From UHGV virus genome UHGV-1966638: a stretch of 16,064 nucleotides of DNA; one strand, 5' to 3'. Within the stretch, counting starts at the first letter, position 1. Each line of letters opens with the position of its first letter. Shown here in pieces: positions 9,001-12,000 of this stretch. The position numbers are program-made. Source of the DNA: a virus.

Positions 9001-12000
9001 ATTAAAGCTCTCAAGAAAGAAAAAAGACTAATTGGCTTCATCGGTGGCCCACCGTGCCCTGATTTCTCCGTTGCAGGTAAGAACAAAGGTCGCGATGGAG
9101 AGAACGGTAAGCTGTCTCAAAGTTACATCAATATAATTGTTGAGATGAAGCCTGACTTCTTTTTGTTCGAGAACGTCAAAGGTCTTTATCGCACGCTCAA
9201 ACACCGTGAGTTTTTTGAGCATCTCAAAAAACAGTTAATGGACGTTGGTTACATCCTTCATGAAAGGTTAATAAATTCGATTGAATACGGAGTCCCGCAA
9301 GACCGTGAACGCATTATTCTGTTGGGTTTCCAAAATAAAAGTCTAACCAAGATCTTTAACTGGAGTGGAAGATTATACCCAGATAGTAGTGCTTTTGAAC
9401 ATAATTGGCCAACTACGAATGAATTTGTTGAGAACTCAACACTGGCAATGCCTGAGTCACTTCCTGAAGAGTTAACTGTTGACTACTGGTTTAGGAAAAA
9501 CAAAGTTTCTGAACATGTGAACGCAAAACATGTGTTTACTGCTAGGGCTGGGTTAGTTCGCTTTAAAGCTGTAGCTGAAGGGGACGATAGCAAAAAATCT
9601 TACAAGCGTCTTCATCGCTGGAGATATTCTCCAACAGCTGCTTACGGTAATAATGAAGTACATTTGCATCCATATAAGCCACGTAGAATAACAGTTGCAG
9701 AAGCACTTGCCATTCAGTCTTTACCGAAAGAATTCGAATTGCCATCTTACATGACTCTTTCAAATATGTTTAAAACTGTTGGCAATGGTGTTCCTTACCT
9801 TGCGGCTTTAGGCATAGCAAAATCCATATTAGAGCATTTAGGGATAAAAGATGAATTTAACAGCAATGAATCTTGTGAATGCGATAGCAAATCTACCCAA
9901 AAACAGGCAGTTTGATTATGTGAATGAAAGTAATGCCGGGAAGATTGTTATCGACTCGATTAAGTTACCAGAAGGCCCAATACGCTTTAAACGTTTCAAT
10001 CCAACCAAAGGTGAAACGCTCAGAGATGCCAAAGTTGATAGCATATCTAGCCAAATGCTATGGCGTTTGGCTAACGCAATTCAAGAGGATGCGCCTATCA
10101 ATTTAGATAGAGTATTCGGTGCAAGCTATAACTCTCGTTCAGTTATTGAAAGTTTGCTTGCTCATACACCTCAATTTTATTGGTGTAAACTCGACCGCTT
10201 AGAGGTTATTAATACGAAACAGACGATTAAAAAAGGCCACAAGCATCTTATATACTTACCGAATTTACCACATGAAAACGGCAAGCTTTCTGAATACAAA
10301 ACTAATATTGTAATATCAGAGATGAACACAGAAGTTGTATACCAAAGTGTTGATTCAGAAACAATCCGTCCAATTGAAGGCATGTCTATTGAAGAATCAA
10401 GAAGACATGCACAAATCCAGATAGCATTAGTAAAAATCGGTCATCATCTGGGATACAGAACATGGGTTGCAGCTAATGACCGAGGATTAAAATACAATGG
10501 TAAAGCAATCGCTCAAATGGATGGTGTCATTGACAGTCTGTCTAATGAAAAAGTCCTAAGTTCCTACAGCGAAGCCATTGCTGGCGCAAGATTGATAGAT
10601 TGCATCTGGTTTAGAAATGGTAAATTGATGCCTGCCGTGATGGAGATCGAGCATAGTACCGGAATAATAAGGGGTTTAGCACGTATGAAGAACTTCTGTG
10701 ATTATGCTCCCCGTCTGCAAGATATACGATGGACAATCGTAGCTCCAGATGAATATAGAGAAAAAGTAATTGAGTTTGCAAATAGACCACAATTTCGTGA
10801 GCTAGACACAAAATTTTTTCCTTACTCTGCCGTAGAAGAATTGTATTCTCTTTGTGAGCGCCGAAAGCCTCAAGGAATAACCGATCAATTCTTAGATTCT
10901 TTCATGGAAAAATGCATCAAACATTAAAAAAGCCGGGATAAACCCGGTTCTGATGACTAAATAGCTGTTCGGAATAGTAGATCACTTCGTATTTGAGGGA
11001 ACTCAATCCAGATTATGCGATCTGATCAATAACACAAATCCCAAATAAGCAAATCGGACTGAGCGATGTCGATACGTTTAACGATCTAATTAAGGCCGTA
11101 AAACTATTGACGACATGGGCGAAAGATAACTTGCGAGCAATATACCTCATGCACATCAAAGAAATGTCACAACGGAAGGCCTGATTTTAAAATCGCGTAA
11201 GAAATCTGCAATTACCCGTAGTGATTGCGGCTGACAGTAAGTCAGTTACAAAGTCAGTTACATATCGCTCCTGATGCACACATTCCGTAGGGCAACAATT
11301 CCCCGAAAAGTGCGCAGAAAACTGCGCAAATTCGATCATAAAACCGATCACAAAATCGATTATGCTGACCACCAGCACAAAGCCAGTAACGACGCGGCTT
11401 GCAGGGGGATAGACCACCTCAAAAAGTGCGCAAAAAAATGCGCATTTTTCTCAAAAACGAAACGCAACAGGAAGCGCAAAACGAAACCGATACGTGATGA
11501 TCGATTTTTTGTAAGTTACTTAAAGTAACCTACAAAAATGAACGTTTTTACAGAGCATAACCGCAACTCACAGGGGGACCGATGACCGACCGTTCACCAA
11601 CAGAGGTAATTCACGGGATTATTGAAGAACAGGAGGAGCGCGAGTTAATCCTCATGATTGAAGAGCAGAGAGAACGCCAGCGCAAACAGGAGTCCACGCA
11701 GCCGGACAGCGTGACCACTGAAAATTATGCGCGTGTTGTGGCTGGGGTGCCGTGATGGTGTCGAACTGAGTAACTTTAAGTAACCTTGTGACCAGTTTTA
11801 AACGAGTCGCAAAAAGAGCCGGAGAAAAACCACGAATCTGTGGTTTTTACTGAGCACGCTGTACACGGTGGAACATATGGTGGTCAGGAGACGGCAGGAG
11901 CAGCGACAGAACGCGGCTCCGTATCAGTGGCATAAGCCAGAGCCACAAATGAGGAATTTCAAAACCCCTTCTAAAGGTATTTTCATGAAAATCAGCCTTC

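Follow-up and report, generated by a model that had tools for sequence, protein, structure and literature searches.

An NmeDI-family restriction endonuclease gene paired with an m5C methyltransferase gene in a mobile cassette of an Escherichia coli island

What does the gene that overlaps the C-5 cytosine (m5C) DNA methyltransferase gene of the virus genome UHGV-1966638 encode, and do the two genes form a restriction-modification (R-M) pair? The window considered here is the whole stretch of 16,064 nucleotides (nt) of this genome, and the gene in question (R gene, positions 9851-10927, plus strand) starts with ATG and encodes a protein of 358 amino acids (aa) plus a stop codon. The original prediction, made from the sequence alone, took its overlap and co-orientation with the methyltransferase gene (M gene) as a sign of a cognate Type II restriction endonuclease, but saw no recognisable nuclease family signature and left room for a different methyltransferase-linked effector. 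Profile matches place the R protein, itself uncharacterised, in the known NmeDI family, and current Pfam, PADLOC and part of RefSeq recognise it as such; the pair is very probably a functional NmeDI-type Type II R-M cassette. Family membership, a predicted fold, a conserved acidic triad, an obligatory methyltransferase partner, purifying selection and mobility are directly supported by the present analysis.

The family assignment is carried by a full-length match of the R protein to the PADLOC profile REase_II (PDLC03534; E = 7.3e-124, residues 2-356 on positions 5-350 of 351) and by its homologues. A search of 5.8 billion proteins recovered 1704 of the latter, and the Pfam family PF27126, whose name is given as NmeDI_C on look-up, is precomputed on all of the best 120, many of which are named "restriction endonuclease" or "type II restriction enzyme". 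The same family is precomputed on the 99%-identical representative of the window protein's cluster (P0001); the PF27126 model is newer than the local copy of Pfam-A, and the assignment was read from this representative and from the homologues. Names in the databases agree: WP_001308314.1, 98% identical to the window protein, is a "type II restriction enzyme NmeDI-related protein" in two RefSeq genomes of E. coli, other members of the 90% cluster are called "restriction endonuclease", and a protein with 56% identity (P0117) is named after the Swiss-Prot entry NmeDIP. Identity to family members from outside the enterobacteria is 51-65%. Two proteins considered as the Neisseria enzyme R.NmeDI itself, P0131 (351 aa) and P0353, were rejected, neither being from Neisseria.

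The claim that the protein lacks a nuclease family signature holds for some resources and fails for others. Searches with the R protein returned only noise from local Pfam-A (best hit enterotoxin B, E = 0.18) and NCBIfam (best hit RuvX, E = 0.13), with no profile match in either collection to HNH, GIY-YIG, Vsr or regulator families, and sequences in the PDB matched neither the single protein nor the family profile. The NmeDI family has no solved structure. PADLOC, PF27126 and the RefSeq naming, on the other hand, do provide a signature. All significant matches are restriction endonucleases and none is a confident match to a non-nuclease family, which bears out the Type II endonuclease originally proposed, while the alternative of an unassignable or different effector gives way to a described family. 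A megablast search of phage genomes gave no match, and relatives of the R protein are encoded on sixteen viral contigs of IMG/VR. The outcome is mainly corrective: the R gene encodes a recognisable restriction enzyme and no orphan effector, and its RefSeq label, "hypothetical protein", is outdated. The exact window protein is recorded under that name on 306 contigs, and near-identical R proteins are named inconsistently as "hypothetical protein", "restriction endonuclease" or "type II restriction enzyme NmeDI-related protein".

The namesake of the family, R.NmeDI of Neisseria meningitidis, is a Mg2+-dependent enzyme of 351 aa that cuts (12/7)RCCGGY(7/12), that is, on both sides of its site, in two steps that free a 25-bp fragment; the enzyme forms a tetramer whose efficient cleavage depends on two sites in cis, and it restricts λvir about 1000-fold (Kwiatek and Piekarowicz, 2007; PMC2095814). 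Its gene, nmeDIR, follows the m5C methyltransferase gene nmeDIM in the same orientation, the two overlapping by nine codons, and the authors saw no significant homology to Cfr10I or BsrFI, which share the recognition sequence (PMC2095814). A review of Type II enzymes from 2014 classed NmeDI as "symmetric Type IIS" (PMC4081073). The window pair resembles this system in the family of its endonuclease, in protein length (358 versus 351 aa, the REase_II profile itself having 351 positions), in the presence of a separate, co-oriented m5C methyltransferase gene upstream with overlapping frames, and in the lack of similarity between the R protein and Cfr10I or BsrFI. It differs in its setting, a mobile island of E. 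coli rather than the interval between pheS and pheT, in having no adjoining Vsr gene, and in the extent of the overlap (65 nt).

The two genes of the window are arranged as originally described. The R open reading frame (ORF) begins 65 nt ahead of the M stop codon, both ORFs are co-oriented, and the shared segment (9851-9915, plus strand) comprises the last codons of M and the first of R, an arrangement that suggests translational coupling. The start at 9851 is preferred to the in-frame ATG at 9866 because T4 and A5 are conserved family-wide, both being invariant in 34 homologues (alignment A1).

A model of the R protein was built with AlphaFold2 on the same 34-sequence alignment and reached a mean predicted local distance difference test (pLDDT) score of 85.3. 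It divides the protein into an N-terminal domain presumed to recognise the target sequence (residues 1 to about 156; 9851-10318, plus strand), a low-confidence interdomain linker delimited by pLDDT and conservation (residues about 157-178; 10319-10384, plus strand) and a C-terminal NmeDI_C cleavage domain with a predicted PD-(D/E)xK-type fold (residues about 179-358; 10385-10924, plus strand). The pLDDT falls to 58-64 over residues 151-180 and below 50 over 157-161, and the linker is also the least conserved part of the alignment and holds insertions and deletions. The N-terminal domain has 24 positions that are invariant across phyla, contains the invariant motif G129-H-K-H132 and is somewhat less conserved than the C-terminal domain. 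In the latter the model places helices at 180-199 and 272-285 and strands at 203-206, 251-255, 259-266 and 293-298, and this order is, as modelled, that of the αβββαβ core of PD-(D/E)xK nucleases. Foldseek comparison of the model with the PDB returned nothing below E = 1e-3.

The acidic cluster that the original prediction had singled out as the only candidate catalytic feature (ID...EIEH, near residues 240-270) is well supported by conservation. It corresponds to a predicted catalytic motif, D250-X14-E265-I-E267 (10598-10651, plus strand), defined by invariance and predicted strands: D250 directly precedes the second core strand (β2, 251-255), E265 ends the third (β3, 259-266) and E267 follows just after, at the usual (D/E)xK position. 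No variation is seen at these three positions in the 34 family members, nor in 28 distant relatives whose similarity is confined to the C-terminal domain (alignment A3), where D210, R278 and R312 are invariant as well; H268 varies outside the core NmeDI family. The active site of BamHI (E77/D94/E111/E113) likewise has Glu in place of the Lys of (D/E)xK. This likeness in the D...ExE pattern is one of motif only, set by sequence, and BamHI is otherwise an unrelated, single-domain Type IIP enzyme.

A division of labour between the two domains is supported by their separate occurrence. A profile search of 1.84 billion representative proteins gave 1291 relatives, the more distant of which match only residues about 165-355 and bear other N-terminal modules. 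The NmeDI_C domain is fused to EVE in P0241 (E = 3.6e-8, passing the Pfam threshold) and, by a weak, sub-threshold match, in P0220, to SAD/SRA in P0232 (weak, E = 0.0016, below the Pfam threshold), and to TPR repeats in P0238 and P0266. Conversely, the NmeDI-type N-terminal domain is joined to an AAA_5 ATPase in P0268 and to an unrelated C-terminus in P0217. No NCBIfam model matched the EVE, SRA-like, TPR or AAA_5 fusion architectures above its cut-off. Since each domain also occurs without the other, the N-terminal domain may be regarded as a DNA-targeting module and the C-terminal domain as a portable cleavage module; with the low-pLDDT linker between them, these domain comparisons support a Type IIS layout. 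The EVE, SRA-like and TPR fusions are candidate modification-dependent nucleases. It is possible, though we would put it below even chances by some way, that a lysine-less D...ExE cleavage module, also fused to the modified-base readers EVE and SRA, represents an undescribed feature of the NmeDI family. Should that prove right, the well-conserved E. coli member would be a handy model for the way in which a symmetric Type IIS enzyme that reads a palindrome places its nuclease 12/7 nt to either side.

The layout does not bring the R protein close to the well-known enzymes with which it might be compared. FokI and the N.BspD6I / R.BspD6I small subunit show no sequence similarity to it, carry a D...DxK motif where the window protein has D...ExE and have an unrelated recognition domain; NmeDI, moreover, cuts on both sides of its site, unlike enzymes of the FokI type, because that site is palindromic. 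The CCGG family (Cfr10I, Bse634I, NgoMIV, SgrAI, BsaWI) consists of single-domain enzymes that cut within the site, unlike what is predicted for the window protein, and its active site, with a relocated Glu and an SxK motif, is absent from the latter. Judged by sequence or profile homology together with within-site cleavage, the R protein falls outside the Cfr10I/NgoMIV family, and only the general fold is held in common.

The second line of support comes from the methyltransferase. The M gene (8776-9915, plus strand) is a complete ORF for a C-5 cytosine DNA methyltransferase of 379 aa that matches PF00145 (E = 3.7e-53, positions 3-323 of 324), TIGR00675 (E = 1e-47) and the PADLOC profile MTase_II (PDLC03355, E = 3e-164) and shows all the usual motifs (FSGSG, PPC, ENV, QDRER and GNGV). 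The M protein also matches the DruM profiles of Druantia; a Druantia system was rejected, as no other genes of that system are present.

When one genome was scanned for each species, 223 species proved to have relatives of the R protein, and 80 loci were kept; these span Proteobacteria, Bacteroidota, Bacillota, Cyanobacteria, Elusimicrobia, lineages of the Candidate Phyla Radiation (CPR) and others. An M orthologue (50-93% identity) adjoins the R gene in every locus with room upstream (78/78), the remaining two lying at contig edges. M and R are on the same strand in the 72 loci with a near-full-length M match. In 69 of 74 related loci the two frames share 1-122 nt, the ends being inferred from tblastn alignments. 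The closer the R protein of a locus is to that of the window, the closer, as a rule, is its M protein (r = 0.93 for the identities across loci, or r = 0.41 when close enterobacterial copies are left out). The R ORF is intact in six enterobacterial copies (the window and five orthologues), and the ratio of nonsynonymous to synonymous substitution rates (dN/dS), in the four enterobacterial orthologues with estimable dS, is 0.033-0.054 for R and 0.035-0.10 for M, the former value indicating strong purifying selection on the R gene.

These data fit a mechanism in which the upstream m5C methyltransferase would methylate the sites of the host, most likely RCCGGY (RCCGGB for the methylase) by analogy with NmeDI, and the endonuclease, as modelled, would combine an N-terminal recognition domain, a flexible linker and a C-terminal cleavage domain of PD-(D/E)xK fold. 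D250, E265 and E267 are the predicted metal-binding residues, with Glu for the canonical Lys as in BamHI, and would be responsible for catalysis. If the protein behaves like R.NmeDI, a tetramer would bind the unmethylated palindrome, need two sites in cis and make double-strand cuts at a distance of 12/7 nt, one flank of the site after the other, freeing a 25-bp fragment (PMC2095814; PMC4081073). The overlapping genes move jointly as a 2.3-kb cassette which, placed in the cargo slot of an integrase/primase island at tRNA-Gly, presumably guards host and island against incoming phage DNA. The invariant D250/E265/E267 triad and the domain boundaries are directly testable, a modest opening since the family has neither a structure nor a mapped active site.

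Several points weigh against this reading. The link to R.NmeDI of Neisseria runs through family profiles and database names, and it is by analogy with that enzyme that activity, tetramer formation, the need for two sites and cleavage 12/7 nt to either side of RCCGGY are ascribed to the window protein. The canonical Lys of (D/E)xK is absent, its position being taken by the invariant E267, and the invariant R278 on the following helix might stand in for it. The N-terminal domain gave no significant structural match. The depletion of RCCGGY in the island is non-specific, YCCGGR being equally affected, and, as weak evidence, the window allele has Arg at residue 274 where Ser prevails.

The alternative that survives best, though rather unlikely, is compatible with the explanation above: an NmeDI-family endonuclease whose site or cleavage geometry differs from (12/7)RCCGGY(7/12). 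Restriction enzymes can switch specificity at 51-65% identity, which is all that links the window protein to family members from outside the enterobacteria, and its recognition domain is the less conserved of the two. Site statistics do not fix the recognition sequence of the window pair. There are two RCCGGY sites in the window against 12.4 ± 3.6 expected, but YCCGGR, with one site, is equally depleted; of the 45 CCGG sites, 42 lie in non-palindromic hexamers (RCCGGR 28, YCCGGY 14). Observed/expected ratios in the 80 related loci are 0.73 for RCCGGY and 0.76 for YCCGGR, with no RCCGGY-specific effect. Since YCCGGR is as rare as RCCGGY, the scarcity reflects a general avoidance of palindromes and is uninformative on specificity; RCCGGY avoidance was accordingly rejected as a specificity signal. 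Against a changed site stand the 24 invariant positions of the N-terminal domain, a partner methyltransferase conserved in parallel (50-66%) and the prediction of RCCGGY by REBASE for an NmeDI relative at 72% similarity (PMC2095814).

Two observations touch on the same sequence. The strong avoidance of palindromic NCCGGN hexamers in the island of the window is not shared by a chromosomal island with the same cassette (L002), which has 13 RCCGGY and 11 YCCGGR among 59 CCGG sites. In PacBio methylomes, E. coli MRE600 and the ST95 strain SF-166 give partial cytosine-methylation signals at RCCGGY; as neither strain is among the 26 complete genomes that bear the cassette, another RCCGGY methyltransferase may circulate in E. 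coli.

It is improbable that the R gene survives only as a relic of lost or reduced activity, which would make the methyltransferase in effect an orphan with an epigenetic role. Point-inactivated R genes are common in genomes, RefSeq labels the window allele "hypothetical protein", and residue 274, within the SGL motif just after the ExE strand, is Arg (AGG, 10670-10672) where about 90% of relatives, including a 95%-identical allele of E. coli, have Ser. Arg274 nevertheless recurs in six other, unrelated lineages of the family; S274R is therefore unpersuasive as decay and was rejected as an inactivating change. The full-length ORF with all its invariant residues, the low dN/dS of R and the presence of the exact protein on 306 contigs speak further against a relic. 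Least of all, and with hardly any probability, the R protein could be a modification-dependent (Type IV-like) nuclease or other non-restriction effector that merely adjoins the methyltransferase, as the EVE and SRA fusions of distant C-terminal-domain relatives and the DruM matches of the M protein might suggest, but it bears an NmeDI-type N-terminal domain and not EVE or SRA, no Druantia genes are present, and Pfam-A and NCBIfam give no matches to HNH, GIY-YIG, Vsr or regulator families. A nuclease active on the very DNA that its obligatory partner modifies would kill the cell, whereas the two genes stay together in 78/78 loci.

The NmeDI-type R-M pair is a standard mobile Type II R-M cassette on an E. 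coli genomic island. The cassette (8643-10959, plus strand) comprises M and R with 133 nt upstream and 32 nt downstream and is the sole part that the window has in common with an island of E. coli CFSAN029787 (94.7% identity). The latter is a different island, situated between the fim/nan region and tRNA-Leu, in which genes for an HNH endonuclease, a phosphorothioate-dependent restriction enzyme, an AAA ATPase and a reverse transcriptase adjoin the cassette; the copy in VCSW7 has the same HNH and phosphorothioate-dependent restriction enzyme neighbours. GC content is 0.38-0.45 in the cassette versus 0.43-0.57 in the flanks. The cassette occurs in 26 of 5426 complete E. coli genomes, and three of those whose context was inspected hold it in a tRNA-Gly island, as in the window.

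The island of the window looks like a phage satellite. It extends over positions 1-13755, where homology to the best-matching genomes stops, and encodes an integrase (1-1215), Rha (2127-2765), an Icd/Ash-like protein (2904-4418), a DUF4222 protein, a DUF927 primase-like protein (5140-7278), SSB (8102-8551) and a Q antiterminator (12596-12994). A second integrase, a tyrosine recombinase of 531 aa (13890-15485), follows the island end and suggests a tandem island. Sister islands at the same tRNA-Gly site have ProQ/FinO-like and PerC-like genes after ssb and no M-R cassette (window 8580-11293 compared with L084 8887-10653 and with L085), and this replacement points to an exchangeable cargo slot. 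The window thus holds one more compact R-M cassette in such a slot of an E. coli integrative island, the same cassette being found in a second, defence-rich island.

Traces of the swapped segment are visible at its borders. The start of a ProQ-like gene persists as a remnant of 18 codons at 8565-8621, and an exact 30-nt direct repeat, GACCGACCGTTCACCAACAGAGGTAATTCA, flanks the segment at 8576-8605 and 11584-11613. The repeat encodes an N-terminal peptide, TDRSPTEVI, shared by two island genes, is also present in cassette-free islands and could be a recombination point for cargo exchange.

A number of non-coding elements accompany the cassette and the island. A G+C-rich stem-loop, CCGGGATAAACCCGG (10933-10947), lies 6 nt past the R stop codon within the cassette and is listed for the minus strand by a scan for terminator-like elements; a scan of the window for sigma-70 promoters and terminators gave counts no higher than in shuffled sequence. 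At 8711-8750, 30 nt upstream of the M start codon, an inverted repeat (GCCCCT...AGGGGC) is followed by TTTTT, was missed by the simple scan because of its long loop, and lies within the part of the cassette (from about 8690) to which conservation in other Enterobacteriaceae extends; it may act as a terminator that insulates the cassette, or else as a hairpin with a regulatory role. Three tandem 21-nt iterons (TGAGGCAACA..., 7386-7458) come directly after the primase-like gene and are followed at 7475-7668 by the first copy of a direct repeat of about 190 nt (91-94% identity), the second copy of which lies downstream of the Q gene (13266-13441); iterons and repeat could form an origin or regulatory region. 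The non-coding sequence that separates the cassette from the Q gene has two copies, 116 nt apart, of the motif AAAAGTGCGCA(N5)TGCGCA (11301-11328 and 11417-11444), as well as a 63-nt repeat with hairpins at 12023-12085 and 12148-12210.

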